NCBI RefSeq assembly: GCF_006345805.1
Contig: NC_043004.1
Span: forward strand, 75,950,001 to 76,014,000
Length of the DNA: 64,000 nucleotides
Direction of reading: 5' to 3'
DNA from: Octopus sinensis
Lineage: Eukaryota
Part shown: positions 15,001-53,396 of the stretch, piece by piece
Numbering within the stretch: position 1 is the first letter of the stretch
Layout: every line of letters begins with the position of its first letter
Program-made: the position numbers and the translations under genes
Notes under the pieces: generated by a model
Told to the model about the DNA's origin: nothing
The model's database searches: none
The model's input: the letters and a program-made list of their open reading frames with translations, nothing else

Positions 15001-18000
15001 TATAATTCGTGTTTTCTTGGTACCTCTGCAACCCTGTTCTGTTCCTAAGACGAGGAGGCACCTCCGTTGGTGCAGCTTTTCCAGACTGGGCAGTCTGCTG
15101 GGACTGAAGGTGAGCGGTTGGCTCTGGACTCATATAATTCGTGTTTTCTTGGTACCTCTGCAACCCTGTTCTGTTCCTAAGACGAGGCACCTCCGTTGGT
15201 GCAGCTTTCTAGGCTGGACAGTCTGCTGGGACTGAAGGTGAGCGGTTGGCTCTGGACTCATATAATTCGTGTTTTCTTGGTACCTCTGCAACCTGTTCTG
15301 TTCCTAAGACGAGGCATCTCCGTTGGTGCAGCTTTTCCAGTATGGGCAGTCTGCTGGGACTGAAAGTGAGCGGTTGGCTCTGGACTCATATAATTCGTGT
15401 TTTCTCGGTACCTCTGCAACCCTGTTCTGTTCCTAAGACGAGGCATCTCCGTTGGTGCAGCTTTTCCAGTCTGGGCAGTCTGCTGGGACTGAAGGTGAGC
15501 GGTTGGCTCTGGACTCATATAATTCGTGTTTTCTTGGTACCTCTGCAACCCTGTTCTGTTCCTAAGACGAGGCACCTCCGTTGGTGCAGCTTTTCCAGGG
15601 TGGGCAGTCTGCTGGGACTGAAGGTGAGCGGTTGGCTCTGGACTCATATAATTCGTTTTCTTGGTACCTCTGCAACCCTGTTCTGTTCCTAAGACGAGGC
15701 ACCTCCGTTGGTGCAGCTTTTCCAGGCTGAGCAGTCTGCTGGGACTGAGGTGAGCGGTTGGCTCTGGACTCATATAATTCGTGTTTTCTTGGTACCTCTG
15801 CAACCCTGTTCTGTTCCTAAGACGAGGCACCTCCGTTGGTGCAGCTTTTCCAGGCTGGGCAGTCTGCTGGGACTGAAGGTGAGCGGTTGGCTCTGGACTC
15901 ATATAATTCGTGTTTTCTTGGTACCTCTGCAACCCTGTTCTGTTCCTAAGACGAGGCACCTCCGTTGGTGCAGCTTTTCCAGGCTGGACAGTCTGCTGGG
16001 ACTGAAGGTGAGCGGTTGGCTCTGGACTCATATAATTCGTGTTTTCTTGGTACCTCTGCAACCCTGTTCTGTTCCTAAGACGAGGCATCCCGTTGGTGCA
16101 GCTTTTCCAGGCTGGGCAGTCTGCTGGGACTGAAGGTGAGCGGTTGGCTCTGGACTCATATAATTCGTGTTTTCTTGGTACCTCTGCAACCCTGTTCTGT
16201 TCCTAAGACGAGGCACCTCCGTTGGTGCAGCTTTTCCAGCTGGACAGTCTGCTGGGACTGAAGGTGAGCGGTTGGCTCTGGACTCATATAATTCGTGTTT
16301 TCTTGGTACCTCTGCAACCCTGTTCTGTTCCTAAGACGAGGCACCTCCGTTGGTGCAGCTTTTCCAGGCTGGGCAGTCTGCTGGGACTGAAGGTGAGCGG
16401 TTGGCTCTGGACTCATATAATTCGTGTTTTCTTGGTACCTCTGCAACCCTGTTCTGTTCCTAAGACGAGGCACCTCCGTTGGTGCAGCTTTTCCAGCTGG
16501 ACAGTCTGCTGGGACTGAAGGTGAGCGGTTGGCTCTGGACTCATATAATTCGTGTTTTCTTGGTACCTCTGCAACCCTGTTCTGTTCCTAAGACGAGGCA
16601 CCTCCGTTGGTGCAGCTTTTCAGGCTGGACAGTCTGCTGGGACTGAAGGTGAGCGGTTGGCTCTGGACTCATATAATTCGTGTTTTCTTGGTACCTCTGC
16701 AACCCTGTTCTGTTCCTAAGACGAGGCATCTCCGTTGGTGCAGCTTTTCCAGTCTGGGCAGTCTGCTGGGACTGAAGGTGAGCGGTTGGCTCTGGACTCA
16801 TATAATTCGTGTTTTCTCGGTACCTCTGCAACCCTGTTCTGTTCCTAAGACGAGGCACCTCCGTTGGTGCAGCTTTTCCAGGCTGGGCAGTCTGCTGGGA
16901 CTGAAGGTGAGCGGTTGGCTCTGGACTCATATAATTCGTGTTTTCTTGGTACCTCTGCAACCCTGTTCTGTTCCTAAGACGAGGCACCTCCGTTGGTGCA
17001 GCTTTTCCAGGCTGAGCAGTCTGCTGGGACTGACGTGAGCGGTTGGCTCTGGACTCATATAATTCGTGTTTTCTTGGTACCTCTGCAACCCTGTTCTGTT
17101 CCTAAGACGAGGCACCTCCGTTGGTGCAGCTTTTCCAGGCTGGACAGTCTGCTGGGACTGAAGGTGAGCGGTTGGCTCTGGACTCATATAATTCGTGTTT
17201 TCTTGGTACCTCTGCAACCCTGTTCTGTTCCTAAGACGAGGCATCTCCGTTGGTGCAGCTTTTCAGGCTGGGCAGTCTGCTGGGACTGAAGGTGAGCGGT
17301 TGGCTCTGGACTCATATAATTCGTGTTTTCTTGGTACCTCTGCAACCCTGTTCTGTTCCTAAGACGAGGCACCTCCGTTGGTGCAGCTTTTCCAGACTGG
17401 ACAGTCTGCTGGGACTGAAGGTGAGCGGTTGGCTCTGGACTCATATAATTCGTGTTTTCTTGGTACCTCTGCAACCCTGTTCTGTTCCTAAGACGAGGCA
17501 CCCCCGTTGGTGCAGCTTTTCCAGGCTGGGCAGTCTGCTGGGACTGAAGGTGAGCGGTTGGCTCTGGACTCATATAATTCGTGTTTTCTTGGTACCTCTG
17601 CAACCCTGTTCTGTTCCTAAGACGAGGCACCTCCGTTGGTGCAGCTTTTCCAGACTGGACAGTCTGCTGGGACTGAAGGTGAGCGGTTGGCTCTGGACTC
17701 ATATAATTCGTGTTTTCTTGGTACCTCTGCAACCCTGTTCTGTTCCTAAGACGAGGCACCTCCGTTGGTGCAGCTTTTCCAGACTGGACAGTCTGCTGGG
17801 ACTGAAGGTGAGCGGTTGGCTCTGGACTCATATAATTCGTGTTTTCTTGGTACCTCTGCAACCCTGTTCTGTTCCTAAGACGAGGCACCTCCGTTGGTGC
17901 AGCCTTTCCAGGCTGGGCAGTCTGCTGGGACTGAAGGTGAGCGGTTGGCTCTGGACTCATATAATTCGTGTTTTCTTGGTACCTCTGCAACCCTGTTCTG

Positions 18001-18697
18001 TTCCTAAGACGAGGCACCTCCGTTGGTGCAGCTTTTCCAGACTGGACAGTCTGCTGGGACTGAAGGTGAGCGGTTGGCTCTGGACTCATATAATTCGTGT
18101 TTTCTTGGTACCTCTGCAACCCTGTTCTGTTCCTAAGACGAGGCACCTCCGTTGGTGCAGCTTTTCCAGACTGGACAGTCTGCTGGTACTGAAGGTGAGC
18201 GGTTGGCTCTGGACTCATATAATTCGTGTTTTCTTGGTACCTCTGCAACCCTGTTCTGTTCCTAAGACGAGGCACCTCCGTTGGTGCAGCTTTTCCAGGC
18301 TGGGCAGTCTGCTGGGACTGAAGGTGAGCGGTTGGCTCTGGACTCATATAATTCGTGTTTTCTTGGTACCTCTGCAACCCTGTTCTGTTCCTAAGACGAG
18401 GCACTTCCGATGGTGCAGCTTTTCCAGGCTGGACAGTCTGCTGGGACTGAAGGTGAGCGGTTGGCTCTGGACTCATATAATTCGTGTTTTCTTGGTACCT
18501 CTGCAACCCTGTTCTGTTCCTAAGACGAGGCATCTCCGTTGGTGCAGCTTTTCCAGGCTGGGCAGTCTGCTGGGACTGAAGGTGAGCGGTTGGCTCTGGA
18601 CTCATATAATTCGTGTTTTCTTGGTACCTCTGCAACCCTGTTCTGTTCCTAAGACGAGGCACCTCCGTTGGTGCAGCTTTTCCAGGCTGGACAGTCT
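44..18697. repeat. Tandem satellite array, 129-bp unit, about 145 copies, derived from an RTE-clade LINE segment
   Basis: Unit CAGTCTGCTGGGACTGAAGGTGAGCGG...GGTGCAGCTTTTCCAGGCTGG(G/A) repeats head-to-tail with very few substitutions. It begins and ends with the same GACAGTCT octamer (44-51, 18690-18697). Copy number is length/129. Confidence 0.98.
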
Positions 18698-18925
18698 TGC
18701 GTTTGCACTTCCCACATGTTGCACTGCATCTCAAAGCTCTTCAGTAAAAGGCTTTGAATGTATCCTTGAAGCACTTTCGCTGTCTACATTGCATGAGCTT
18801 GCCTTCCACCAGTCTCCTGGGAAGTCTCCTGGGATGTTACAGTCTCCTGGGATGTTACATGTCAGGCATTTGAATAAGGTAACCTGCTCACCTGACTTGC
18901 ACTCTCCTCAGCAGTGTGTAGGTGT
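18698..18925 (-). mobile_element. RTE-clade LINE relic: post-RT region, upstream flank of the satellite
   Basis: Minus strand reads TLLRRVQVR*AGYLIQMPD...LVEGKLMQCRQRKCFKDTFKA(fs)LKSFEMQCNMWEVQTQDCPAWKS, a decayed QLRWAGHxxRMPD...KRFKDTLK..LK.F.....WE..AQDR.AW as in RTE/BovB-like ORFs. It runs collinearly into the first satellite unit. Confidence 0.85.
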
Positions 18926-19481
18926 GTATGTTTTACTTTCATTGATCTATGATTATGTTTTTAGCAAAACATATATGAGAGATATTACTATTTTCTTCAT
19001 TGAAATTCACAAGCTACGTGAAATGCATGCATGGACTTCAACAAACCAATTCCACTGAGGTTTCCCAACCACTTTATATTCTTGCTTCATCTACTCATGG
19101 TTTATTATTAAATTTCAACTCATTGGTTGAATATAATTTTCCTTTGATAACCTGTTCACTATGCAGTGAACTTATTTACTGCACCATTTACATATGCTGT
19201 CCCAGTCACTTTTATACGTGTCTAGACTGCTTATGATTTGTTATTCAAACTGGATCTTGCTAAGTGAATGGATTCCCAGCCATTCATACATCTACCCCGC
19301 CTACTCATTATCCACTAAACATATTTTGTTCAAAAAATTTGTTTGCTGTTCAATTTATCCATATCGATAACTGTTTGTACATGGTGTCACTGCTGCAGTT
19401 GCATTTGGGTCCTATTATGTCCCATAACCAACTCTTAAAGACTAAAAACATTCAGAAAAACAAGCACTGATAACCATATAT

Positions 19482-19690
19482 CTATTTCTTCATTGCCCAC
19501 GGGAGCTAAACATAGAGAGGACAAACAAGGACAGACAAAGGGATTAAGTAAATTACATCAACCTCAGTGTTTCACTGGTACTTAATTTATCGACCCTGAA
19601 AGGATGAAAGGCAAAGTCAATCTCGACGGAATTTGTACTCAGAACATAACGGTAGATGAAATACCACTAAGCATTTTGCCTGGTGTGCCC
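19482..19690 (-). mobile_element. tRNA-derived SINE, family A (Meta-domain-like core), partial
   Basis: Reverse complement of the element at 51027-51259 (GCCTTTCATCCTTTC.GGGTCGATAAATTAAGTACCAG core, AAGAAATA tail). Confidence 0.8.
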
Positions 19691-20392: not shown

Positions 20393-21496
20393 CTTCTCTT
20401 CCTCTGACTAGGTAACCAAGTATCTCCTTTACACCAGTACACTTGTATCTGGTCTCTTTCTTGTACCTCTCTCTCATTCTCTGTTTTCACTCTGTCACTG
20501 TCTGTCTGTCTCTCTCACTCTTTCTCTCTGTCACTGGGTAACCATGTACCGCACCTATAGCAAGACACCTATTTCTGCCTCTCTGTTACATTCTAATCTT
20601 TCATCATCTGATACTGGATCACTTCCTCTAATACCCCACTCTTTTGTGACAAGACACCTGCTTCTGTCTCTCTGTCTCTTTGTCACACTCTAACCTGTCA
20701 TCCTCTGACACAAGTCCCCCTCCTCAAATGCCCCTACCCCTCACATAATTCCTTGTCTTGTGAGTTACTTGGTTACACTGCCAGTGCAGTGCTGGTGTCA
20801 CGTTAAAAGCATTCAGTCCACACCATAAAGTGGTTGGCATTTGGAAGGGCATCTAGCTGTAAAAATCATGCCAAAACTAACCTCGCCTGTGCTAGTACCA
20901 TGTAAAAAGCACTGAGTCCATTCTGCGGAATGACTGATGTGAGGAAGGGCATCCAGCTGTAAAATCCCTACCAAAACAGGCACAGTAGCCTTGGACAGAT
21001 GGACATTAAACGATGATGATAATGATATATATATATATATACATATCAAACTAAAATCATTGAACAAGCAAATACAAAGTCAACCGCATGTCATTTCATA
21101 ATTCGAACATTTAATTATAGAATAAACATATAACCCGCAAGATGGAACAAAATTCATATGTACAGCACGTAATAATAATAATATGGTATGGTGCGAGAAA
21201 AATTCTTATCATTAAAACTTAGAATTAATATTCTAGCGATTCAAAGAGAATACATTTATAAAAGGACGTAGAAAGTAAAATATGATATAAGTAATATATA
21301 AAAATATATAGGTATATAAAAATATAGGCATATAAAAATATATAAAACATATATAAATATATATATATACATATAGGAGCATATAAAAATATAATATATA
21401 TATATCGTGTAAATAAAGTAAAATAAGGTTCATCGTTTAGAAATCTTAATCAGGCAAAATAAGCCTTATATATAAGAAGGAAATCATTTTTACTTA

Positions 21497-26207: not shown

Positions 26208-27085
26208 TAGACATAGTATGTCTGGCTTTTGTTTATCTTTTATCTCTGATTTCTGTGGAGTATGTTTGGTCAGCTAAGATTTATAATGGGGGTCATATTT
26301 ATGTAAGATAAGCAGTGTCTCTATTAAATATATGCATATGCTGCTGTCATTAATTATTTATGTTTGCATATAATGTTCGTCCTTCGGTTCGAAGATGACC
26401 AACTGACATCATCTGATGAATTTACAGACGCCCTTTATTTTGTAGTTATTGTTGTTTGATCTGGTTTACTGAACCCTCGGAAATAATTGCCAGAAGGTTT
26501 TCTGGCCTTACTACTGTGTCAGCAAGCTGTATATATATTTCTTTATTGCCCACAAGGGGCTAAACATAGAGGGGATAAACAAGGACAGACAAAGGGATTA
26601 AGTCGATTACATCGACCCCAGTGCATAACTGGTTCTTTATTTATCGACCCTGAAAGGATGAAAGGCAAAGTCGACCTCGGCAGTGTCAACAAGCTGTATA
26701 AATGCCTCTGTGTGTGTGTGTGTGTTTGTGTGTGAGGTCACTTGTAACGTCTCCCATGGGTGTTACTGGTAACATGGAATTCAGTACAAACTGTTGCATG
26801 GCTGGATTGCATGGTTGGATTGCAAGCCCCATTAGGCTTGCTTGGTGAAGAGGGTTGTTAGAAACCCAGCAGGACAGAAAAACAAGATCAGTCGAAAGGA
26901 GAGATGGACATTCAGTAGGCTCAATGACTATCCAGCAACAGCACGGGGCCCTCAAGAATTCCAGGCGGGAGTCCAGCATGCTGGCAGACCATTGGGAATG
27001 GAGCACCTCTTAGCTTTTGCTAAAGTATGTCTCTCTAGTATGAAAGTCACTCTAAAATAAAAGTAGATGTGCAGGGAATGACATT

Positions 27086-27298: not shown

Positions 27299-27338
<40 letters not shown>

Positions 27339-27405
27339 TTACATATACATATATACAATGGGCTTCTTTCAGATCCACTCACAAGGCTTTGGTCAGCTCA
27401 AGGTC
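27086..27405 (-). mobile_element. SINE family B, 3' part (AAAAGAGT tail)
   Basis: Reverse complement of the element at 53150-53716: GCTCCAGCATGGCCGCAGTC, ACCGATAGAATAAGTACTAGG and an internal (CA)n/(TA)n tract. Confidence 0.8.
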
Positions 27406-28801
27406 ACCACATTCCTTACCAGATAAAAACCTCTCATCCGGGGTGGGTGGGTGAGTTGTATTGAGTGGGTGTGGCTTTGTGCCATTTGAGAGATTTGAGG
27501 TACAATATATAATATAACTATTATATTCGTATCTGGACTGAACCTGTAATCATGTGGTTGGTAAGCAAGCTACTTGCCATACAGCCACTCCTGCACCTAT
27601 TGTGGCGAAAGAGTCAGCACAAGTTCGCCATTAACTTCTGCCGGAGCCACATGGAGCTTAGGTGTTTCGCTCATAAATACACACATTGCCTGGTCTGAGA
27701 TTTGAACTCGCGATCCATCGACCGTGAGTCCGCTGCTCTAACCACTTGGCCATTTTGCAAGGATCTTTTGCCTGCACTTGAGATCATGGTGCTCCCAGAT
27801 TCCTGAGCCTGCAACCCATATTGGTACTGGATATCTTGTCTTGGTTTGTGTCAGTAGAGTGGAGAAGGTCTGTGATGTGCTGTGCAAGTTTTATTGCACC
27901 TGAAACTTTAGGTAGAGCAATCAATGGAGAGGCAGCTTTCCGATGGCCAATAGGAGGATGCCCCAACAAGCATGGAAGCTTCAGATGCAAACTTGTGTGA
28001 AGCTGACTGCTGGGGCAATAATCTCATGCATGAACATTGCTAGCATTTTGCATGGACAGTGGTCAGTGACAGTCTTTCTTAGTCATGAATTGACAGCTAT
28101 ATACACATACATACATACATACATACATACATACATGGTCATACTCACGATGACCCATACACCACTGCAGAAGTGTTATGACCAATCCTTCTGGTTGTGT
28201 AAAACACCCATGGTGGTACCACATAAAAATGCTCTTATGGTGACCATAAAAGTATCCATTTGGTGTCACATAAAAGTGCCTATGTGGAGCCATGTAAAAG
28301 CATCCAGCACATTCTGTAAAGTGGTTGGCATTAGGAAGGGCATCCAGCAGTAGAAACCATTGCCAAATCAGACTGGAATCTGGTGCAGCTCCCCAGCTTG
28401 CCAGCTCTGGTCAAACCATCCGATCTAGGCGAGTAGGGACAATGGATATTAAATAGCGATGATGATGATGACGATATATAGTCTTTTGCTTAATGGCCCA
28501 AACAGAAACACAAGCAAAATGGTAGGATTACAACCATATTCAACTTTATCCTTTTTCTTTTCTGTTCTCTTCTTTATTTATTCTTCACTCTGATGAAGCT
28601 TCATGTTTCAGATCAGTTTTATTACCAAATAGGATTAATACTTTTACATATTTTGAATATCAATGGAAATAGAAACATTTTGAATATCAATGGAAATAGA
28701 AACATCTGTTAGGTGGGATGCAGTCTATTTGCATTAAATTAATAAATTATAATTGATGTAAGTCAATTGTTGTTAATCAGTACTTCTCCATTTTGTTTTA
28801 T

Positions 28802-28876
<75 letters not shown>

Positions 28877-30333
28877 ACATATACATATATACAATGGGCT
28901 TCTTTCAGATCCACTCACAAGGCTTGGTCAGCTCAAGTCACCACATTCCTTACCAGATAAAAACCTCTCATCCGGGGTGGGTGGGTGAGTTGTATTGAGT
29001 GGGTGTGGCTTTGTGCCATTTGAGAGATTTGAGGTACAATATATAATATAACTATTATATTCGTATCTGGACTGAACCTGTAATCATGTGGTTGGTAAGC
29101 AAGCTACTTGCCATACAGCCACTCCTGCACCTATTGTGGCGAAAGAGTCAGCACAAGTTCGCCATTAACTTCTGCCGGAGCCACATGGAGCTTAGGTGTT
29201 TCGCTCATAAATACACACATTGCCTGGTCTGAGATTTGAACTCGCGATCCATCGACCGTGAGTCCGCTGCTCTAACCACTTGGCCATTTTGCAAGGATCT
29301 TTTGCCTGCACTTGAGATCATGGTGCTCCCAGATTCCTGAGCCTGCAACCCATATTGGTACTGGATATCTTGTCTTGGTTTGTGTCAGTAGAGTGGAGAA
29401 GGTCTGTGATGTGCTGTGCAAGTTTTATTGCACCTGAACTTTAGGTAGAGCAATCAATGGAGAGGCAGCTTTCCGATGGCCAATAGGAGGATGCCCCAAC
29501 AAGCATGGAAGCTTCAGATGCAACTTGTGTGAAGCTGACTGCTGGGGCAATAATCTCATGCATGAACATTGCTAGCATTTTGCATGGACAGTGGTCAGTG
29601 ACAGTCTTTCTTAGTCATGAATTGACAGCTATATACACATACATACATACATACATACATACATACATGGTCATACTCACGATGACCCATACACCACTGC
29701 AGAAGTGTTATGACCAATCCTTCTGGTTGTGTAAAACACCCATGGTGGTACCACATAAAAATGCTCTTATGGTGACCATAAAAGTATCCATTTGGTGTCA
29801 CATAAAAGTGCCTATGTGGAGCCATGTAAAAGCATCCAGCACATTCTGTAAAGTGGTTGGCATTAGGAAGGGCATCCAGCAGTAGAAACCATTGCCAAAT
29901 CAGACTGGAATCTGGTGCAGCTCCCCAGCTTGCCAGCTCTGGTCAAACCATCCGATCTAGGCGAGTAGGGACAATGGATATTAAATAGCGATGATGATGA
30001 TGACGATATATAGTCTTTTGCTTAATGGCCCAAACAGAAACACAAGCAAAATGGTAGGATTACAACCATATTCAACTTTATCCTTTTTCTTTTCTGTTCT
30101 CTTCTTTATTTATTCTTCACTCTGATGAAGCTTCATGTTTCAGATCAGTTTTATTACCAAATAGGATTAATACTTTTACATATTTTGAATATCAATGGAA
30201 ATAGAAACATTTTGAATATCAATGGAAATAGAAACATCTGTTAGGTGGGATGCAGTCTATTTGCATTAAATTAATAAATTATAATTGATGTAAGTCAATT
30301 GTTGTTAATCAGTACTTCTCCATTTTGTTTTAT

Positions 30334-30417
<84 letters not shown>
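27320..30417. repeat. Direct tandem duplication, 2 x about 1.54 kb, bounded by (TA)n
   Basis: 27360 aligns with 28896 and 28801 with 30333. The copies differ mainly by four 1-bp deletions in short runs, and the same ORF appears twice in the track (27943, 29505). Confidence 0.95.
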
Positions 30418-30419
<2 letters not shown>

Positions 30420-30877
30420 TATATCATTATTTATATCAGGAATCAATATTAGAAAATTCTTCAGAAAGTTATGTACATGTGTAAAATAATTGTTGTATTA
30501 AAAATATAAATACATATAAAAATATATATAAATATGTATAAGTCATCATCATCATTGTTTAACTTCCGTTTTCCATGCTAGCATGGGTTGAATGGTTCAA
30601 CCAAGGTCTGGGAAGCCATAAATATATAATGTATATGACAGTTTAAATGTTTTGAATTAAGTATTTAAAGCATCTTATGATTGTTTCACAGAAGTGCTGT
30701 CCCTATAATGAAATCCTATATTGATAAGCATTTATAGACAACTCTTCTGCTCCTCAGAGATATATATATTTATATATATATATAAATATAAAGGAATTTG
30801 CGAATGCACGAAGGCTGTGAAGACAGCTTAGGTAATTGGGAAAATACCATTAAGAAAATGGAAACAAATGGCCAGCA

Positions 30878-30953
30878 AGCCTCCACAGGGAATCAAACCC
30901 TGCATCTCTCAAATTCCGGCTGAGTCCCTCTGAACCATTAAGCTAAGAGATCC
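30878..30953 (-). pseudogene. Degenerate tRNA-like sequence (tRNA pseudogene or SINE head)
   Basis: Minus strand has an A-box-like TAGCTTAATGGT, a CTCAG/TTGAG anticodon-like stem and a B-box-like GGTTTGATTCCC. The acceptor stem is poor. Confidence 0.45.
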
Positions 30954-31117
30954 CTGACGACAGATTCTATAGTTTTTGGAATGTGATAAGATTTTGGAAA
31001 AATAAATTTATAAGAGATGAGTGTGCTGGTGTTCTACATAAATAAAGTACTAAAGAAAAGTAATAAAAGTAATATAGTAATACATACATACCTACATATA
31101 CATCTACATCTAATTAT

Positions 31118-31157
<40 letters not shown>

Positions 31158-31162
31158 ACACA

Positions 31163-31200
<38 letters not shown>

Positions 31201-31217
31201 CATCATTGATACACACA

Positions 31218-31543
31218 TACATCATTGATAGGCCAGTTACTGTTGTATTTTTCTTGATAAAACATCTTTCATGGATTTGCTGTATTAAAAACACAATAAA
31301 TATCAGAGAGAGAGAGAGAGAAAGATTCATCTCAGCTGCTGCCTGCAAGTGCAGTGGATAAATTTCAATGTTTTTGGGTCTTTTCAATGGAATGTATTCA
31401 CAGCCAGCCTCACACTCATGGGAAAAAAGTGACTGAAATATTCCCTGATGTTGCAAATATTGTGTTTTTCACACAGCAAATCTATAAGGGATGTTATTTC
31501 AGGACAAATACTGCAGTATCTGACCTATCAACTGTGTATATAC
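31218..31543. mobile_element. MITE with about 80-bp imperfect terminal inverted repeats
   Basis: TTGATAGGCCAGTTACTGTTGTATTT...GATTTGCTGTATTAAAAACACAATA is mirrored by TATTGTGTTTTTCACACAGCAAATC...AAATACTGCAGTATCTGACCTATCAA. Ends approximate. Confidence 0.7.
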
Positions 31544-31808
31544 ATTAAGTATGCTAGCGTAAGTCTTTTATCTTTTATCTTTTACTTGCTTCAGTCGTTA
31601 GACTACAGCCATGCTGGAGCACTGCCTTGAAGAATTTTTAGTTGAATGAATTGAGCCAGTAGTTTTTTTAACTTTTTAAACCCAGTAGTTATTCAATTAG
31701 TGTCTTTTACTGGACTGCTAAGTTACGGGGGATGTAATCAAACCAACACAGGTTGTCAAGCGGTGGTGGAGGATACAGATACACACACATATACATACAT
31801 AAATACAT

Positions 31809-31839
<31 letters not shown>

Positions 31840-31876
31840 CACAATATCTACAAGATAATACGGAGACTGAATAGAT

Positions 31877-34800
31877 GTGCCGGTGGCACATAAAAAGCAC
31901 CATCCGGCACGGGGTCCAGGCGAGGCTGGCAACTGACACGAACGGATGGTGCTTTTTATGTGCCAGCGGCACGGGGGCCAGGCGAGGCTGGCAACGGACA
32001 CGAACGGATGGTGCTTTTTACGTGCCACCGGCACGGGGTCCAGGCGAGGCTGGCAACTGACACGAACGGATGGTGCTTTTTATGTGCCAGCGGCACGGGG
32101 GCCAGGCGAGGCTGACAACGGACACGAACGGATGGTGCTTTTTACGTGCCACCGGCACGGGGTCCAGGCGAGGCTGGCAACTGACACGAACGGATGGTGC
32201 TTTTTATGTGCCAGCGGCACGGGGGCCAGGCGAGGCTGACAACGGACACGAACGGATGGTGCTTTCTACGTGCCACCGGCACGGTGTCCAGGCGAGGCTG
32301 GCAACGGACACGAACGGATGGTGCTTTTTATGTGCCACCGGCACGGGGTCCAGGCGAGGCTGGCAACGGACACGAACAGATGGTGCTTTTTATGTGCCAC
32401 CGGCACGGGGTCCAGGCGAGGCTGGCAACGGACACGAACGGATGGTGCTTTTTACGTGCCACCGGCACGGGGTCCAGGCGAGGCTGGTAACGGACACGAA
32501 CGGATGGTGCTTTTTACGTGCCACCGGCACGGGGTCCAGAAGAGGCTGGCAACGGACACAAACGGATGGTGCTTTTTACGTGCCACCGGCACGGGGGCCA
32601 GGCGAGGCTGACAACGGACATGAACGGATGGTGCTTTTTACGTGCCACCGGCACGGGGTCCAGGCGAGGCTGGCAACGGACACGAACGGATGGTGCTTTT
32701 TATGTGCCACCGGCACGGGGTCCAGGCGAGGCTGGCAACGGACACGAACAGATGGTGCTTTTTACGTGCCACCGGCACGGGGTCCAGAAGAGGCTGGCAA
32801 CGGACACAAACGGATGGTGCTTTTTACGTGCCACCGGCACGGGGGCCAGGCGAGGCTGACAACGGACATGAACGGATGGTGCTTTTTACGTGCCACCGGC
32901 ACGGGGTCCAGGCGAGGCTGGTAACGGACACGAACGGATGGTGCTTTTTACGTGCAACCGGCACGGGGTCCAGGCGAGGCTGGCAACTGACACGAACGGA
33001 TGGTGCTTTTTATGTGCCAGCAGCACGGGGGCCAGGCGAGGCTGACAACGGACACAACGGATGGTGCTTTTTATGTGCCACCGCACGGGGTCCAGGCGAG
33101 GCTGGCAACGGACACGAACGGATGGTGCTTTTTACGTGCCACCGGCACGGGGTCCAGGCGAGGCTGGCAACGGACACGAACGGATGGTGCTTTTTATGTG
33201 TCACCGGCACGGGGGCCAGGCGAGGCTGACAACGGACACGAACGGATGATGCTTTTTATGTGCCACCGGCACGGGGTCCAGGCGAGGCTGGCAATGGACA
33301 CGAACGGATGGTGCTTTTTACGTGCCACCGGCACGGGGTCCAGGCGAGGCTGGCAACGGACATGAACGGATGGTGCTTTTTACGTGCCACCGGCAAGGGT
33401 CCAGGCGAGGCTGGCAACGGACATGAACGGATGGTGCTTTTTACGTGCCACCGGCACGGGGTCCAGGCGAGGCTGGCAACGGACACGAACGGATGGTGCT
33501 TTTTATGTGCCACCGGCACGGGGTCCAGGCGAGGCTGGCAACGGACACGAACGGATGGTGCTTTTTACGTGCCACCGGCACGGGGTCCAGGCGAGGCTGG
33601 CAACGGACACGAACGGATGGTGCTTTTTATGTGTCACCGGCACGGGGGCCAGGCGAGGCTGACAACGGACATGAACGGATGATGCTTTTTATGTGCCACC
33701 GGCACGGGGGCCAGGCGAGGCTGACAACGGACATGAACGGATGATGCTTTTTTTATGTGCCACCGGCACGGGGTCCAGGCGAGGCTGGCAACGGACACGA
33801 ACGGATGGTACTTTTTATGTGCCACCGGCACGGGGTCCAGGCGAGGCTGACAACGGACACGAACGGATGGTGCTTTTTACGTGTCACTGGCACGGGGGCC
33901 AGGCGAGGCTGACAACGGACACGAACGGATGGTGCTTTTTACGTGCCACCGGCACGGGGTCCAGGCAAGGCTGACAACGGACACGAACGGATGGTGCTTT
34001 TTACGTGCCACCGCACGGGGTCCAGGCGAGGCTGGCAACGGACACGAACGGATGGTGCTTTTTACGTTCCACCGGCACGGGGTCCAGGCGAGGCTGGCAA
34101 CGGACACGAACGGATGGTGCTTTTTACGTGCCACCGTTCGTGTCCGTTGCCAGCCTCGCCTGGCCCCCGTGCCGGTGGCACGTAAAAAGCACCATCCGTT
34201 CGTGTCCGTTGCCAGCCTCGCCTGGACCCCGTGCCGGTGGCACATAAAAAGCACCATCCGTTCGTGTCCGTTGCCAGCCTCGCCTGGAACCCGTGCCGGT
34301 GGCACATAAAAAGCACCATCCGTTCGTGTCCGTTGCCAGCCTAGCCTGGACCCCGTGCCGGTGGCACATAAAAAGCACCATCCGTTCGTGTCCGTTGCCA
34401 GCCTCGCCTTGCCCCCGTGCCGGTGGCACATAAAAAGCACCATCCGTTCGTGTCCGTTGTCAGCCTCGCCTGGCCCCCGTGCCGGTGGCACATAAAAAGC
34501 ACCATCCGTTCGTGTCCGTTGCCAGCCTCGCCTGGACCCCGTGCTGGTGGCACATAAAAAGCACCATCCGTTCGTGTCCATTGCCAGCCTCGCCTGGACC
34601 CCGTGCCAGTGGCACGTAAAAAGCACCATCCGTTCGTGTCCGTTGCCAGCCTCGCCTGGACCCCGTGCCGGTGGCACATAAAAAGCACCATCCGGACACG
34701 AACAGATGGTGCTTTTTACGTGCCACCGGCACGGGGTCCAGAAGAGGCTGGCAACGGACACAAACGGATGGTGCTTTTTACGTGCCACCGGCACGGGGGC

Positions 34801-37081
34801 CAGGCGAGGCTGACAACGGACATGAACGGATGGTGCTTTTTACGTGCCACCGGCACGGGGTCCAGGCGAGGCTGGTAACGGACACGAACGGATGGTGCTT
34901 TTTACGTGCAACCGGCACGGGGTCCAGGCGAGGCTGGCAACTGACACGAACGGATGGTGCTTTTTATGTGCCAGCAGCACGGGGGCCAGGCGAGGCTGAC
35001 AACGGACACGAACAGATGGTGCTTTTTATGTGCCACCGGCACGGGGTCCAGGCGAGGCTGGCAACGGACACGAACGGATGGTGCTTTTTACGTGCCACCG
35101 GCACGGGGTCCAGGCGAGGCTGGCAACGGACACGAACGGATGGTGCTTTTTATGTGTCACCGGCACGGGGGCCAGGCGAGGCTGACAACGGACACGAACG
35201 GATGATGCTTTTTATGTGCCACCGGCACGGGGTCCAGGCGAGGCTGGCAATGGACACGAACGGATGTGTGCTTTTTACGTGCCACCGGCACGGGGTCCAG
35301 GCGAGGCTGGCAACGGACATGAACGGATGGTGCTTTTTACGTGCCACCGGCAAGGGTCCAGGCGAGGCTGGCAACGGACATGAACGGATGGTGCTTTTTA
35401 CGTGCCACCGCACGGGGTCCAGGCGAGGCTGGCAACGGACACGAACGGATGGTGCTTTTTATGTGCCACCGGCACGGGGTCCAGGCGAGGCTGGCAACGG
35501 ACACGAACGGATGGTGCTTTTTACGTGCCACCGGCACGGGGTCCAGGCGAGGCTGGCAACGGACACGAACGGATGGTGCTTTTTATGTGTCACCGGCACG
35601 GGGGCCAGGCGAGGCTGACAACGGACATGAACGGATGATGCTTTTTATGTGCCACCGGCACGGGGGCCAGGCGAGGCTGACAACGGACATGAACGGATGA
35701 TGCTTTTTATGTGCCACCGGCACGGGGTCCAGGCGAGGCTGGCAACGGACACGAACGGATGGTACTTTTTATGTGCCACCGGCACGGGGTCCAGGCGAGG
35801 CTGACAACGGACACGAACGGATGGTGCTTTTTACGTGTCACTGGCACGGGGGCCAGGCGAGGCTGACAACGGACACGAACGGATGGTGCTTTTTACGTTC
35901 CACCGGCACGGGGTCCAGGCAAGGCTGACAACGGACACGAACGGATGGTGCTTTTTACGTGCCACCGGCACGGGGTCCAGGCGAGGCTGGCAACGGACAC
36001 GAACGGATGGTGCTTTTTACGTGCCACCGGCACGGGGTCCAGGCGAGGCTGGCAACGGACTCGAACGGATGGTGCTTTTTACGTGCCACCGGCACGGGGT
36101 CCAGGCGAGGCTGACAACGGACACGAACGGATGGTGCTTTTTACGTGCCACCGGCACGGGGGCCAGGCGAGGCTGACAATGGACATGAACGGATGGTGCT
36201 TTTTACGTGCCACCGGCACGGGGGCCAGGCGAGGCTGACAACGGACACGAACGGATGGTGCTTTTTACGTGCCACCGGCACGGGGGCCAGGCGAGGGTGA
36301 CAACGGACACGAACGGATGGTGCTTTTTACGTGCCACTGGCACGGGGGCCAGGCGAGGCTGACAACGGACACGAACGGATGGTGCTTTTTACGTTCCACC
36401 GGCACGGGGTCCAGGCGAGGCTGACAACGGACACGAACGGATGGTGCTTTTTACGTGCCACCGTTCGTGTCCGTTGCCAGCCTCGCCTGGCCCCCGTGCC
36501 GGTGGCACGTAAAAAGCACCATCCGTTCGTGTCCGTTGCCAGCCTCGCCTGGACCCCGTGCCGGTGGCACATAAAAAGCACCATCCGTTCGTGTCCGTTG
36601 CCAGCCTCGCCTGGAACCCGTGCCGGTGGCACATAAAAAGCACCATCCGTTCGTGTCCGTTGCCAGCTTTGCCTGGACCCTGTGCCGGTGGCACATAAAA
36701 AGCACCATCCGTTCGTGTCCGTTGCCAGCCTAGCCTGGACCCCGTGCCGGTGGCACATAAAAAGCACCATCCGTTCGTGTCCGTTGCCAGCCTCGCCTTG
36801 CCCCCGTGCCGGTGGCACATAAAAAGCACCATCCGTTCGTGTCCGTTGTCAGCCTCGCCTGGCCCCCGTGCCGGTGGCACATAAAAAGCACCATCCGTTC
36901 GTGTCCGTTGCCAGCCTCGCCTGGACCCCGTGCTGGTGGCACATAAAAAGCACCATCCGTTCGTGTCCATTGCCAGCCTCGCCTGGACCCCGTGCCAGTG
37001 GCACGTAAAAAGCACCATCCGTTCGTGTCCGTTGCCAGCCTCGCCTGGACCCCGTGCCGGTGGCACATAAAAAGCACCATC
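31877..37081. repeat. 62-bp GC-rich tandem array (about 84 units) with internal inversions
   Basis: Unit GTGCCACCGGCACGGGGTCCAGGCGAGGCTGGCAACGGACACGAACGGATGGTGCTTTTTA(C/T). Orientation switches at about 31905, 34135, 34693 and 36462. Confidence 0.97.
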
Positions 37082-37312
37082 CGTTTGTGGCCGTTTGCCA
37101 GCTCTGTCTGGCACCTGTGCGGGTGGCACGTAAAAAGCACCCACTACACTCACGGAGTGGTTGGCGTTAGGAAGGGCATCCAGCCGTAGAAACACTGCCA
37201 GATCTGACTAGGCCTGATGAAGCCTTCCGGCTTCACAGACCCCAGTTGAACCGTCCAACCCATGCTAGCATGGAAAACGGACGCTAAACGATGATGATGA
37301 TGATGATGATGA
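37082..37312 (+). mobile_element. 3' part of (GAT)n-tailed SINE-like element (family D), parent of the 62-bp array
   Basis: TGGCACGTAAAAAGCACCCACTACACTCACGGAGTGGTTGGCGTTAGGAAGGGCATCCAG...CCAACCCATGCTAGCATGGAAAACGGACG-(GAT)n, shared with the copies at about 49.2, 51.7 and 58.2 kb. Confidence 0.88.
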
Positions 37313-37485
37313 CAACTGGCTTCGTTCAGCTTCCATCTATCAAATCCACTCGCAAATTTTTGGTTAGCCCGAGGCTATGGTGGAAGACACTTGCCCAAGG
37401 TGCCATGCAGAGGGACGGAACCTGAGAATTATGTGGTTGGGAAGCAAACTTCTTACCACACAGCCATGCTAGATAGATTGACAGA

Positions 37486-37517
<32 letters not shown>

Positions 37518-39744
37518 TATGCATGCATACACACACACACTGTAACTATGTGTGTGTGTGTGTGTGCTTTCCCTGTCACCAACTGATGTTGGTTTGTTCA
37601 TGTCCTCTAATTTAGCAGTTCAGTTTTAAAAAAAAAAAATGGGAAAAAAAGTACTGGAGTTGATTTGTTTTCAATGACTGAAACAAGTTAAAGACAAAAG
37701 ATAAAAGAAATGAAGATGGCAAAAACAGGCACCTAATGAAGCCACTGGATTGATATAATTAATTAAAATACTTTAATGATAGTGCTCCAGTTTGGCCACA
37801 GTCTAATGACTGACATCAACCAAAGCTGGCTTCTGCTGCTACATATTTCTGAATGATAAAATACTTCGCATCTCTTAACCTTTTGATGACCTGATGTTAT
37901 CCTGTTTGAAAACTCCCAGCTTCATTCATGGCTGGTTGCAGTCTTTGTCTGCCCCTTCCACACCCCAACTGCTCCTGCTAAATTCCATTTGCTCAGAAAA
38001 ATAATTAAGGGGTTGCTGCTGTCATGTTAAGTGATCCTTCCTATGCAGGAAGCCCTCTGACATTTTCTTTGTTCACTTCACCTGGATCTGTCCTTTATTC
38101 AACAAAAGAAATTTGGTGGTAAGAAGTTTCTTTCTAAACCACATGTTTCTGGGTTCAGTCCCACTGCATGGCACTTTGGATAAGTGTCTTTTATTATAGC
38201 CACGGGCTGACTGAAGCCTTGTGGACAGAATTGGGATCTAGTCTTTAGCCCCCTTTAATTTTGCTCAGATTGCTTTCAATTTTGGTGTATCAATGCAATG
38301 CTGAATTTTAATTATGATCAACCAATTACTTTATCTCATAAATTAAAGAATCTGATATTAAATGAAATTAAAGTTGGGAAATTTGGGTAATTTTAGCCAA
38401 TCAACAGACAGTGAAGCATTAAAGCTTGTTACCATGACAACTGTACGTTGTGTTGTGTTGTTTTTCATCCAATTGTTGTGTTTATTCTTTACACCATGAG
38501 ATTTACTTCACCCACGTATTTTGTTTTAACAAAAATTTATATTTATCAATTAGAATTTAATTATAAATATTTTTCGTCAATTGTCTTAATATTTTACATA
38601 TTTTTCGTATACAGCAAAAGTTGTTTGCGATGTTTATACAGTTTCTTGGTATTACGAAGGTGAATGGAACATATGAACTTAGTACAGATAATTTGACATT
38701 ATTTTTGAATTGTGCAAGAACATATAAACCACAGGCATTCTTTTTCTTGGGACAAATTCTTTGTTGACCAGTATTATTCTTATTGTAGTTTACAAATCCA
38801 AGCATGAAAACAGTACTCAACTTTGAAGTTTTGGAGACAGATGACCCCTTTTCACACACACACACACACATACACGCACACGATAGGCTTTTTCCAGTAC
38901 CCATCAAGCAATTTTGGGATCTAGTTTTTTTCAATTGCAAAATATGCATTTCTTAAATGACAGTAAAAAATTTGAAAATCCGCTAAAATAATATAGTTTT
39001 CCAGTTTTATTGCTATGAAAGTATGATGCTATGCAGAAAAAAAAAATTGGAGGAAAAAGTTACAGGAGTTTAAAAATCAGAAAAACTGTGTATTTATAGC
39101 CAATAGCGAGACAGAAATTTTTTGTGTTTAGTGGAGCAGTATCAACTTTAAGGTTGTACCCTGTGAAATTTATAGTTTAGCGTCTGACCTGTTCATTGTA
39201 GGTTTCTAAATAAACAGAAATACCAAATAAAATCAACATGTATCATCTTGCTGTTTCTTTTGTCTCTTCATTTATTGCATGTTTTTAGTATTTTTTTTAA
39301 AGTTGTTATATTAATATATTTGTCTGCATGAGTTTACTTTATGCATATTACAGTATTATGTATACCTGTCATGTATTTGTGTACATCGTTAATATATAAG
39401 TGCATGTATGTGTGTGTGTGTGTATGTTTTTGTGTGTGTATGTCTGTGTGTTTGTGTGTGCATCTGTCCACCACCACCACCAGTATTGGTGTGTTTACAA
39501 CCCCATAACTTAGCAGTTCGATCAAAGAGACAACCACAGTACTTAGTACAAGGGTACTAAACCTGATATTAAGTTCTGTGGTTGTTTCAAGGTGGTGCCC
39601 CAGCATGGCCACAGTTGAATGACTAAAACAAACAAAAGATAAAAGAAAGTGAGAAGATTTGATTGGCAGAACCCCACCCCATCCCTGAAAGACGCCTGTG
39701 TATGTGTGTCTGAGTAAATATATATATATATATATATAAATTGT

Positions 39745-44184: not shown

Positions 44185-46525
44185 GTAAGTTTCTTTTATA
44201 AGCGATATTTTTCTTCTTCTTTAAATGTATTAAATTTGGAATTCTTGTTATAATCATAAACCCTGGGGCTTCTGTAGTAGTCAAAAAACTGTTTTGTCTT
44301 TTAAGAGTGAAGTGTTAAACTAAATGCAGAGGACACCGACTCCCCTTAAGGGTGGTCAGGTATTTGAAAAGATTATTGTCATTTGTGAATAACAAGTTTA
44401 AAATTGTTGGCCCCGATAGATTTACCGATTTTTTCCCCCACTGTTCGATAATATTAGATTTCTTGGTTTTCTTTTAAGTGATGTTGTTGACCGAACACTG
44501 AACAGTAAATGTGCGTCCTTCATTTATTATAAAAACTTATTTCCACAACAATTTCATTTTGCTATATTTCTGTTGCTTTAAGTTCTTATTTTTTTAATTG
44601 CTACGTATTTAGTAAAATAACGAAGTGTTTAGTAAAATGACTTTGTCATTAATTATTTATAGGATAAATTAACATTGAAGTTTGATAGATTTTTATTTAA
44701 TAGAACGAGTTTGCATCGTAGCACCAAGGGCGGTGTTGGACGGGTTAATTGGGTTCCGATATTTCACTTGCAAAACCAAAAAGAAAGCTTAAATCTCCGA
44801 AACTAAAAGGATGACTATTTTCTCCTCTTTTAATTTCCTTTCATTCTATTATTTTATTCTCATCTCAGATAATTTATAATTGATAAATATTACGGGTGCA
44901 TGCCCTCTCCCCATTTCATTTAACGAGGGGGGGGGAACTTTTTTTATGTGAAGTGTTCGACATCGTTGCGAGTGGCAGCCGGTGGTTTCTGGACAAGAAT
45001 GAATGACTTTTCATCTCCTTCTTTGCTAATTTAGTAGTTCTGCTGTTTATACGTCATTTACTTCTAATATTTCTCAGTAATATTCTCAACTTCAGTCACG
45101 GGTTGTGTGAAAATAAGAATTAACGATGTTTCCTTTATGAAATTTACAGAAAATACGTTATGGTTCCTCGTTTTAAGAAAAAAACCCAATTATTTTGTCT
45201 CTTGTGGTTTATTTATGTGTGAAATGTCGAAGTTTTTAAAATTCACTATTTTGTATCTCGCATGCCAACAATGAGTCCTTGTTTGTCTGCTGGACCAGCT
45301 AGAAATAGCAACCAAATCACATCTTTCCGTCCTCTTTGCAGGATGTTACAGTGGCCTACGTGCGTGTGTGTGTGTGAATATAAGGAAGCTGAACTACCGG
45401 TCTTGTCTCAATTTTTTTTTTCTCCCAGTTTATATTAATATAATAATCTATCAATTATATACAATGTTAGGACCAGACAAACAACGCTAGAAGGAATCTC
45501 AACATGGATTTTAATTTGCTAAAAATAGCAGCCAAATCTCAAATTGCATTGTATCATCGGTTAATTTGTTAAACTTCGTTTCTGGGTAATATTGTAAACA
45601 TTAACCGTATTATTTCCAAAAAAGAAAAAGAGGGATATTTAAGTAAACGTAGTCCTAGATACCATTACGTAAGCGATGGTCACCATTGGAATGCTTTTAG
45701 CTCGTAGGTGTTTGCTCTGTCAAAGATTCTTCTGGTGCCGAACAACCACAGACTAAATACGTGTCTCTCTTGAATCCCTATACAGCGATTCTTATTCTGA
45801 CAAATACTAAATTAATACTCTGTATTGTTTCGTAAGGCCTGAAATATTGCGGGAGAGTGTTGGTTGATTACATCTACTCCAGTATTTGATTCGAACTTTA
45901 TTCAATCGGCCATGGAAGGATAAAATACAAAGTTTTAACTTTGGCGGGATTTGAACTCGGAACGTAAAAATATGGAAGAAATGCTTCAGGGCAATTTCGT
46001 TCCACGAGAAGACCGACAAAATAGCTTGCTTTCATATCTTTTTTCCTTTTCCGCCGTGTTTTTTGAATAAAATTTTAAATGTTTAAAACGGTTTTAGTTA
46101 ATGTTCAATTTTAATTTTATGGAATATGGCAATTTGCCCCCTTTTCAGGCCCCTGAATGGAGAAATACTGCTTTAGAGTTGCACAGACACCCAGTATGGA
46201 TAATCACAATAATTAATTCTACTGTAGGCAGAAGGCCTGAAAATTTGGCGGGGAAGTGTATAGGCTGCGTGATAAGAAGCATGCACATGGTTCCAGGTTC
46301 AGTCCCACTGCGGCGTGCCACCTTGGGCAAATGTCTTCTGCTTTAACCTCTGGTCGACCAAAGCCTTGTGGGTGGATTTGGTAGACGTAAACCGAAAAAA
46401 GCCCGTCGTGTATGTCTGTGTTTGTCCCCGCTTCACTATTTGACAACCGTTGATGGTGTGTTTACGTCCCTGTAACTTAGCTGTTCAAGAGACCGATACA
46501 GTAAGTTTTTTTTTTTGGGGGGGGG

Positions 46526-48894: not shown

Positions 48895-49365
48895 TCACAT
48901 AACCAGCCCCAAACCCATCCAAAGTACCTTGTATCGCAGGACAGCCTGCTGTGCTTGCCTTGGATTGTAGGGTGACCTGCTGTGCTTGAGACCTATTGAG
49001 TCAAGTACATCAAAATAAAAATCAAACGGAAATTGTAGTTGTGATACCTGTGCTGGTGGCACATAAAAAGCACCATCCAAATGTGGCCAATGCCAGTGCT
49101 GCCTTGGCTGGCTTCCGTGTCGGTGGCATGTAAAAAGCACCAACCGATCATGGCTGTTGCCAGCCTCCCCTGGCACCTGTGCCGGTGGCATGTAAAAAGC
49201 ACCCACTACACTCAATGGTTGGCGTTAGGAATGGCATCCAGCTGTAGAAATACTGCCAGATCAGACTGGTGCCTGGTGCAACCAATCTGGCTCACCAGTC
49301 CCCAGTCGAACTGTCCAACCCATGCCAGCATGGAAAATGGACGTTAAACGATGATAATGGTGATG
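48895..49365 (+). mobile_element. (GAT)n-tailed SINE-like family D, with 3 internal ~60-bp modules
   Basis: GTGGCA(C/T)(A/G)TAAAAAGCACC occurs three times, followed by the GGTTGGCGTTAGGA...CCAACCCATGCCAGCATGGAAAA-(GAT) tail. Confidence 0.85.
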
Positions 49366-50097
49366 TTCTATACTGGTGATGTTTGTTGAAATTAAAACCA
49401 ACACCCAGTTGGGCTTCTGTATAGAACCTCTACATTTCATCTTGCTTATTTGTTTTATTGGCTTTGTCACTCGGTGTGCTTGTTGGTGGTGGGTCTGGTG
49501 GTAGTGATTGGTTGGGGGTCTGTGGTGGTGATTGGTTGGGGGTCTGTGGTGGTGATTGGTTGAGTTGATGAATGAAAATAAGGTTTTTGGGTTGCATGAA
49601 GTAACTGAACAACGTCGGTGAACATTTTAACAGGATTTTATTGACAGCAGTAATTACATCTTGGAAGAGAGCTACTGTTTGGAGTTTACGACAAACCTTA
49701 TTCATATGGCAACATGTGATTGGCCCAACATGACTGGAAACAGTTGTGCTATATTCTTGGTGACAGAGCTTCCTGTTCTCTGTCTTGTCATCTTGGGTCA
49801 TCTGGCTGTAGCAAGACTGGAGAAACTGTGCAGCTGCCTCAACAAAAGCAGCCCTTTTAAGGCACGAGAAAATTCTAGAAGATTGAATCACATGACTTTA
49901 TTCTGATTGGTTGCTGAATTGACCAATCATGTGAAACCACTGTGGTTTGGTCATGATGCATCACTGGTTACCTAGCAGTTCAGTTTCAAATCAACACTAC
50001 AATTTGTTCGTTCTTTTGCCAGAAAGTGTCAGTGTCGTAAATCTGGTACAAAAGAACAAAGTCCAGTTACATGCAAGCAGTGAAGCTTTCTTTTTAG

Positions 50098-51026: not shown

Positions 51027-51259
51027 ACGGCGGCGAGCTGGCAGAATCGTTAGCACACCAGGCGAAATGCGTAGGCGTATTTCGTCTGCCGTTACGTTCT
51101 GAGTTCAAATTCCGCCGAGGTCGAATTTGCCTTTCATCCTTTCGGGGTCGATAAATTAAGTACCAGTTACGCACTGGGGTCGATATAATCGACTTAATCC
51201 CTTTGTCTGTCCTTGTTTGTCCTCTCTCTGTTTAGCCCCTTGTGGGTAGTAAAGAAATA
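51027..51259 (+). mobile_element. Full-length tRNA-derived SINE family A with an 11-bp TSD
   Basis: Head GAGCTGGCAGAATCG, B box GAGTTCAAATTC, Meta-like core. GATATGGCAAC is duplicated at 51016-51026 and 51260-51270. Confidence 0.9.
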
Positions 51260-51300
51260 GATATGGCAACTTTACTTTTGGTGTTGTGATAACGGGCTTT

Positions 51301-51868
51301 CATGCTGGTGGCAAGCAATAAGCACCATTCATGCGAGGATCGTTGTCGGTGCTACCTGACCGGCTCCCTGTGCTTGGTGGCACGTAAAATGCACCATGCA
51401 AACGTGGTTGGTGTCAGCCCCCCCTCCAACTGGCTTCTGTGCCGGTTGCATGTAAAAAGCACCATCCGAACGATGCCAATGCCACCTAACTGGCTCTCAT
51501 GCTGGTGGCAAGCAATAAGCACCATTCATGCATGGGTTGTTGTCAGTGCTGCCTGATTGGCTTCTCATACGAGTGGCACGTGCTAGCAACCCCCCCCCCC
51601 AACTGGCTTCTGTGCCAGTAGCATGTAAAAAGCACCATCCGAACGTGGCCGATGCCAGTGCCACCTGATTGGCTCCCGTGCCGGTGGCACATAAAAGGCA
51701 CCCATTACACTCACGGAGTGGTTGGCGTTAGGAAGGGTATCCAGCTGTCGAAACATTGCCAGATCAGATTGGAGCTCGGTGAAGCCTCCTGGCTTGCCAG
51801 TCCCCAGTCAGAAAACCGCCCAACCCATGCCAGCATGGAAAACGGACGTTGAACAATGATGATGATGA
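51301..51868 (+). mobile_element. (GAT)n-tailed SINE-like family D with about 6-7 diverged internal modules
   Basis: TGGCA.GTAAAAAGCACCAT-like modules recur at about 60-bp spacing, followed by the family D 3' end and (GAT)n. Confidence 0.85.
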
Positions 51869-52396: not shown

Positions 52397-52543
52397 GATT
52401 AGTTGAAGAAATAGACCCCCCCCCCACTCCCAGTACTTATTTTCAAGTCTGGTACTTATTCTGTTGGTCTCTTTTGCTGAACTGCTGAGTTATGGGGATG
52501 TAAATAAACCAACACCAGTTGTCAAGTGGCAAACACACACACA

Positions 52544-52618
<75 letters not shown>

Positions 52619-53149: not shown

Positions 53150-53310
53150 GGCACAGGAGTGGCTGGGTAGGTACAAAGCTTGCTTCCCAACCACATGGTT
53201 CTGGGTTCAGTCCCACCTGTGTGGCACTTGGGGCAAGTGTCTTGTATTATAACCTTGGATCGACCAAATCTTTGTGAGTGGATTTGGTGGAAGGAAACTG
53301 AATAAAGCCC

Positions 53311-53396
<86 letters not shown>

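Follow-up and report, generated by a model that had tools for sequence, protein, structure and literature searches.

How does a tandem array that lies inside a single retroelement come to run in both directions? A locus on contig NC_043004.1 of Octopus sinensis (Eukaryota; NCBI RefSeq assembly GCF_006345805.1) poses this question. It lies in a window of 64,000 nucleotides, positions 75,950,001 to 76,014,000 of the forward strand, and all coordinates below count from the first letter of that window. A 62-bp repeat extends across 31877-37141 (5265 bp, 84.9 units) within one copy of a dispersed retroelement family. We are nearly certain that this is a genuine retroelement-derived minisatellite and equally so that its first inversion is real; a second reversed block is very probably real too. 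As for its history, we give an about even chance to an account in which a minisatellite of the 62-bp module arose in one 5'-truncated copy, was inverted early and then grew separately in the two orientations.

What does the array look like? A preliminary description, made from the sequence, had claimed about 84 copies of the module running into the family 3' end and a (GAT)n tail, and the unit count and a (GAT)7 tail at 37290-37310 bear this out. The array starts with the GTGCCGG motif quoted there. Tandem Repeats Finder divides it at period 62 into 31904-34136 (36.0 copies), 34134-34694 (9.0), 34693-36463 (28.6) and 36461-37141 (11.0), with 93-95% matches and a consensus that flips between one sequence and its reverse complement from block to block. 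Orientation by 10-mers adds a forward stub of 30 nt and yields five segments, S0(+), A1(-), B1(+), A2(-) and B2(+), instead of the single head-to-tail array that had been implied. S0 (31877-31906), the 5' end of the truncated element, is in phase with B1. A1 (31904-34136) is a reversed block of 36.0 units once two net deleted bases are corrected. B1 (34134-34694) comprises nine forward units and ends at the position of the CATCCG of S0, A2 (34693-36463) is a reversed block of 28.5 units, and B2 (36461-37080) holds ten forward units, that is B1 plus one unit with three substitutions absent from B1. The order is thus 30 nt plus, 36 units minus, 9 plus, 28 minus, 10 plus and a terminal module, with four orientation switches. 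B2 merges without a break into the diverged terminal module (37081-37141, plus strand, 81% identical to the unit), then into the family 3' body (37142-37289, plus strand, with a conserved box at 37160-37184) and the tail, also on the plus strand. The 86 module cores divide into 21 plus and 65 minus, so that three quarters of the array is oriented against its own element. Identity among the 82 full units is 94-96%. The reading frames of the array, 111-332 codons long, are as expected for a strand without fixed stops, and a Pfam scan of five frames of the window gave no match above the cut-off.

The switch points are precise. At J1 (31904-31906) the forward sequence ...CATCCG is joined to GCACGGGG..., and at J2 (34134-34136) ...GTGCCACCG is joined to TTCGTG..., each time across a CCG/CGG microhomology, so that this tract stands at both ends of A1. 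J3 (34693-34694) joins ...CATCCG to GACACGAAC... over the 2-nt microhomology CG, while J4, at the boundary of A2 and B2 (36461-36463), has the same sequence as J2, ...GTGCCACCG to TTCGTG.... One 3-base microhomology therefore serves three of the four switches. Joined to B1, S0 gives an in-phase unit without a break, and what lies reversed between the two copies of CCG amounts to 36.0 units with the two deleted bases corrected. The tract used at J1, J2 and J4 is one of 41 inverted tracts of at least 3 nt in the unit, 13 of which are longer. By eye it extends to 6/7 pairs with one bulge, and folding supports no stable hairpin there. A reciprocal flip between inverted arms was considered and rejected, as it predicts a different J2.

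Are the reversed blocks mirror images of the forward ones? The second minus/plus pair duplicates the first in order, with changes at the level of units. From about 32739 onwards the units of A1 return in A2 in their order, 19 of the 22 pairs without any difference in substitutions, and A2 has six more units. B1, which terminates at its last regular unit, agrees with B2 in substitutions in all nine paired units, and B2 has one unit more. Single-base indels that differ between the duplicates resemble long-read errors, like those of a 1.53-kb duplication upstream. No such order links A to B. The longest exact match between B and the reverse complement of A is 124 nt (two generic units), against 399 nt for B1-B2 and 317 nt for A1-A2 in direct orientation, and identical unit types follow one another in the same order over at most 1 unit between A and B, 14 between A1 and A2 and 6 between B1 and B2. 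Of 32 unit types in A and nine in B, only the variant-free type is common to both. Thirty distinct substitutions were counted, 18 confined to A, five to B and seven present in both, five of these seven at CpG sites; singletons amount to 0.4% per site (12 in 51 units). Inside A, all 22 pairs of adjacent 10-unit windows have a rare variant and a unit type in common (the windows overlap and are not independent), and internal dimers and trimers testify to local duplication. Yet the end of A that would adjoin B if the block were uninverted has no rare variant and no unit type in common with B. Since a fold-back copies the adjacent sequence exactly and A is not a mirror of B, a simple fold-back is rejected, and the pattern argues for an early inversion followed by separate growth.

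Where do the units come from? The derivation from an internal module of the family, which the preliminary description had made dependent on an alignment of the unit to the dispersed modules, holds. All ten modules aligned (the terminal module of the array element and nine dispersed ones) match the unit at 60-82% identity, with scores of 26-80 against a best shuffle of 13 (200 shuffles for each alignment), and the shared core is clear in the alignment. The 3' part of the array element matches 49157-49365, 51670-51868 and 58190-58412 at 84-85%. The other copies carry the module numbers reported earlier: three at 49049 (copy 49049-49365, plus strand), three at 58092 (58092-58412, plus; two cores at up to four substitutions and a third with a 1-nt gap) and seven at 51301 (copy 51290-51868, plus, with a block duplication of roughly 200 bp; six cores at up to four substitutions and one decayed). 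A fourth old copy, at 61812-62110 on the minus strand, has one module. These small copies had been read as intermediates of a 3, 7, 84 series, a single lineage that we reject: they are old, heterogeneous and CpG-depleted (CpG observed/expected 0.36-0.56, against 1.0 in the array), their modules are 59-83% alike among themselves, and what they attest is a tendency. Most family copies have one to seven unlike modules. The data support a family prone to module duplication. Its proposed role as a mobile seed of minisatellites stands in so far as the array stems from an internal module and the three multi-module copies of the window show module duplication, a pattern already familiar from the SINE-derived satellites (sSat) of reptiles; simple growth does not suffice, as the layout calls for four switches of orientation and a duplication of 2 kb. 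In four public sequencing runs (of 24 listed, compared over the region 31838-31945) the summed depth, which is no copy number, is 1-7 million at the module core and 17-75 on the flank, and contigs from public runs contain head-to-tail modules spaced by 4-36 other letters (among 12 of 20 rows). This depth, together with contigs that run from core end to core start, fits an abundant family with tandem modules elsewhere. Public contigs from metagenomes, prokaryote genomes and viruses gave no match to the module core. The family also has more distant relatives at 20789-21026 and 28290-28480, one with two copies of module and box, the other with its box preceded by four short, decayed repeats that resemble the module, and at 57820-58091 the upstream part of a family copy stands twice in tandem with a short stretch in between that resembles the end of an open reading frame (ORF).

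What kind of element is the parent? The preliminary description called it a short interspersed element (SINE). The label finds no support: no tRNA was found, Rfam gave no match across 18000-64000, and the A and B boxes of RNA polymerase III (Pol III) are absent from all three heads tested, copies that are old and may be truncated. As at the 3' end of an APE-type (RTE-like) non-LTR retroelement, the array element has a short tandem (GAT)7 tail and is 5'-truncated at the module start, so that it lacks the upstream part seen at 48934-49049 and 57961-58091. The short frame before the copy at 61812-62015 has what we take to be a likeness to the C-terminus of the ORF2 of long interspersed elements (LINEs). 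A 25-nt box of the 3' body (37160-37184) recurs exactly in eight metagenome loci (L001-L008), which match the family over 28-34 nt only and have no modules. In one of the eight, L008, the box is upstream of an endonuclease-like frame; PF03372 is carried by the only homolog of this frame, 90% identical to it, the direct Pfam scan of the frame itself being empty. The box is thus 5' in that element and 3' in the octopus family. Kojima described pieces of RTE 5' untranslated regions inside SINEs and bipartite elements (PMC5786205), and RTE elements with signs of activity are reported from two octopus species (PMC9115989). Our family does not qualify as a Ceph-SINE, with a Ceph domain behind a tRNA head, in that a word search, made without alignment, found no match for five family motifs in the consensus supplement of PMC5786205; nor does the accessible text of PMC4758252, on mollusc SINE domains, mention it. 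No full-length element lies within the window. We consider a LINE-type 3' end, which fits better, a more likely parent than a tRNA SINE, if unproven.

The insertion site can be read on both sides. The left half of an older repeat of another family (31555-31845) ends in a CA/TA microsatellite and is followed by a non-repetitive stretch (31839-31876) before the array; the right half resumes at 37313-37467. Because both flanks align to consecutive parts of uninterrupted copies of this host repeat at 52440-52780, 53150-53700 and 46270-46500, the element sits in the microsatellite of another repeat. Candidate target-site duplications are 4-mers only, either ACAA (31841 or 31850, with its partner at 37312) or ACTG (31866, partner at 37315). 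The flank at about 31839-31869 is covered at a low summed depth of 14-102 in all four runs, which fits an empty site ending at ACTG. None of the listed runs contains more than 0.56 of the words of 30600-38500, where 65% of the distinct 31-mers are flank, and no RNA run is among the matching runs listed.

Unit homology, block layout, junction sequences, ordered duplication and the lack of mirror symmetry are direct observations, and based on them we propose a model in which insertion, a template switch that inverted a few modules during it or shortly thereafter, separate growth and a duplication of about 2 kb are the likely steps. A copy, probably of a LINE-type 3' end, would have inserted into the microsatellite of another repeat, truncated at its module start. 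Synthesis may then have halted at CATCCG, where the first module boundary lies, crossed at CGG to the other strand, proceeded backwards over a whole number of modules and come back at CCG, an event similar to type 3-1-4-2 in the four-point template-switching model; the agent could be a DNA polymerase or a reverse transcriptase, either being possible. Slippage or unequal exchange, unable to cross the orientation switch, would next have expanded A to at least 36 units and B to about ten. A slip from the last regular unit of B back into A, across the 2-nt microhomology of J3, may subsequently have duplicated about 32739-34694; alternatively, unequal exchange between S0 and the end of a B unit could have come first and a deletion at CGG next. 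After the duplication, units would have been gained, lost and converted. A switch at the very first module boundary, one tract at both ends and the absence of sharing with B at the end of A that would adjoin it favour an inversion while the array was still short.

Several observations speak against this history. The common variants 16T, 30C and 48G are present in both A and B, and 16T and 30C are linked in both, which implies that at least three module types were inverted or that conversion crossed the switch. The far end of A also has three rare variants in common with B, all of them CpG transitions on other backgrounds, and no unit type. B may be the quiet 3' edge of a once-continuous long array. 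The unit does not fold in any unusual way that could guide the switch (one to two units give z +0.3 to +1.5 against shuffles), and the 30-nt stub reaches z -1.9 with a best hairpin that differs from the junction hairpin. A strong hairpin or G-quadruplex was rejected as driver, as the unit folds no better than shuffles and the G4Hunter-like extreme is a weak 1.0 (25-nt windows). The assembly carries indel noise in the array region, and the switch junctions are as assembled, without independent read support: in the four runs no listed piece leads from the left flank into S0 or across J1 (longest 43 nt; 32 of about 25,000 pieces), a region where coverage holes prove nothing. Type 3-1-4-2 makes up only 1% of events in the human-chimpanzee data of PMC5453318, rare but observed in primates.

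Could the array have been long before it was inverted? It might have arrived ready-made by RNA, from a donor with at least 47 modules, in a delayed form of twin priming with no growth at the site except the later duplication. The first cDNA would stop at S0, second-strand synthesis would copy 30 nt and switch onto the RNA at CGG, and 36 upstream modules would be reverse-transcribed before a return at CCG. The inversion does resemble twin priming in its position, at the very 5' end of a truncated copy; A overlaps the S0 start by 7 nt with its sense end, which is by phase 20 nt from the B start, near the median internal deletion of 14.5 bp reported for L1 (10.1101/2024.08.27.596794). The CpG ratio of 1.0 suggests youth, the sense unit has no TTTT run, and the word share of at most 0.56 in any run is, like the absence of a listed piece from flank into array, compatible with a recent, non-fixed insertion of varied units. 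Against such transport stands the absence of a common rare variant or unit type at the A end and in B; the low singleton load is also attainable by growth in place. The L1 patterns described in the available text of 10.1101/2024.08.27.596794 do not include a forward stub ahead of the inverted part, and PMC12016303 gives 5' inversions for 0 of 322 germline insertions of SVA and for 1 of 5936 of Alu. We regard this course of events as unlikely, and the more specific claim, that LINE-type machinery moved a ready-made 3-kb minisatellite and mostly inverted it at insertion through a switch from second-strand cDNA to RNA after 30 bases, as rather improbable. A long forward array could equally have been rearranged late at the site, through an interior inversion, its ends joined at microhomology, that lost about one unit or through a 36-unit circle excised and re-entered in reverse by a CCG/CGG crossover. 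A single crossover of a circle yields J1 and J2 as reciprocal products together with a whole unit number, late rearrangement accounts for the non-mirror variants and for the three common variants in A and B, and circular DNA that contains satellite arrays has been reported from Tribolium (PMC13081366). It requires, on the other hand, a break at the first of about 47 module boundaries, three bases are little homology for a crossover, a plain inversion has to use one tract at both its ends (1 in 41, were all tracts equal), and nothing is shared across the A-B boundary. To us this, too, seems improbable.

The other doubts concern the assembly itself. Inverted repeats are a known long-read artefact, and there are no independent reads across the junctions; all switches could in principle stem from fold-back or chimeric reads, and the array could be plain head-to-tail. 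Fold-backs yield mirror copies, which A and B are not, and a single junction recurs as J2 and J4 in two copies that differ at the unit level, so we hold a wholly artefactual layout to be very improbable. An artefact of assembly or library that affects only the A2-B2 duplication at J3, the true locus being S0-A-B, is quite unlikely. The upstream 1.53-kb duplication differs almost only by 1-bp indels, as false duplications do, and the duplicates in the array have no new point mutations beyond reshuffled variants and no read support. J3 is, on the other side, a new junction that overlap of two alleles would not produce, and differences of six units and three unit-level substitutions between A1 and A2, and of one unit between B1 and B2, mean that one molecule is not represented twice here. 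The history that we prefer remains an early inversion and separate growth thereafter.

How does the locus compare with known systems? GC-rich, CpG-rich tandem modules inside LINE-mobilised elements are known from the variable number tandem repeat (VNTR) of SVA and from other retroelement-internal VNTRs, and the array resembles them in this. SVA differs in that no inversions are reported in 322 germline insertions (PMC12016303). The sSat of squamate reptiles (PMC10702118) also has units from part of a dispersed retroposon, a homology found here as well, at least four middle monomers with an extended terminal unit to the element end (here 82 full regular units, 3' body and tail) and short variable loci next to long uniform ones. 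Its units are about 70-290 nt long as against 62 nt, its hosts are reptiles and not invertebrates, a subtelomeric preference is among its traits, and the octopus parent copies tested show no tRNA head. sSat is defined as head-to-tail, unlike our five alternating segments, and the words invert, inversion and orientation do not occur in its main text (PMC10702118). Because the array is not head-to-tail and a SINE parent is unsupported, we do not file it as an sSat member. With twin-primed L1 inversions (10.1101/2024.08.27.596794, PMC12016303, PMC11702581) the array shares a reversed 5' part, a forward 3' part with tail, microhomology (CCG/CGG) and a gap, here 20 nt by phase; it differs in that the reversed part is separated from the target by the 30-nt forward S0, a minisatellite makes up what was inverted, the element is other than L1 and a later duplication probably gave rise to the second reversed block. 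Template-switch mutations of the four-point kind (PMC5453318) likewise produce an inverted copy of nearby sequence through two switches, and types 3-1-4-2 and 1-3-2-4 fit the junctions, but they span tens of bases and not 2.2 kb, so that later growth or a long-range switch is needed. Satellites of Tribolium (PMC13081366) form macro-dyad symmetries from kilobase sub-arrays of opposite orientation, as here, with repeated copies of one inversion site (J2 and J4 are two copies at a single locus) and more frequent inversions in longer arrays; those are thousands of sites in megabase, probably pericentromeric blocks, whereas ours is one 5.3-kb locus whose origin in a single retroelement is readable. 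In the open literature (outside subscription papers, Repbase and Dfam; supplements 5-8 of PMC9115989 could hold the family) we found nothing on the family and no retroelement-internal minisatellite with an inversion. Satellites derived from retroelements are familiar, and so are orientation flips; both in one insertion is a modest variant.

The neighbourhood contains further repeats. A 129-bp array (46-18697 and 18700-18880, 145 copies, cut off where the window begins) runs in one orientation only (14974 12-mers plus, 0 minus), and as 129 is a multiple of 3, long frames of 43-residue repeats are open on both its strands. On the minus strand it continues a broken frame, which we presume to resemble the C-terminus of RTE ORF2, with no Pfam support. 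A small tandem duplication of an 18-bp unit lies near its end (18810-18860), and another, of a 24-bp unit in 3.3 copies, at 49483-49562. The 1.53-kb tandem duplication (27321-28890 and 28856-30424, 99.4% identical, ends in CA/TA microsatellites) differs by 1-bp indels and two letters in the terminal microsatellite and may be very recent or a false duplication in the assembly. A separate dispersed family of about 230 bp, with copies 83-92% alike, occurs at 19476-19688, 26530-26681, 51029-51267, 54659-54883 and 59995-60230. The local domain prone to amplification that the preliminary description proposed is not supported beyond what the 129-bp array, the 1.53-kb duplication 1.5 kb upstream, itself a possible assembly artefact, and the 62-bp array may suggest.

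What are the implications of such a locus? We propose no function beyond selfish, unstable DNA, and the weight of a single locus, without read support or function, is modest. The origins of orientation flips are rarely readable; here the ends of the element survive together with the points of switching and the succession of unit variants, and one locus records truncation, inversion, growth and duplication. If the layout is true, a very abundant family could reveal whether inversion precedes or follows array growth and whether arrays travel by RNA. If RNA transport is true, elements would move whole minisatellites and make dyad-symmetric satellite seeds in one step, which would give orientation flips a datable origin.

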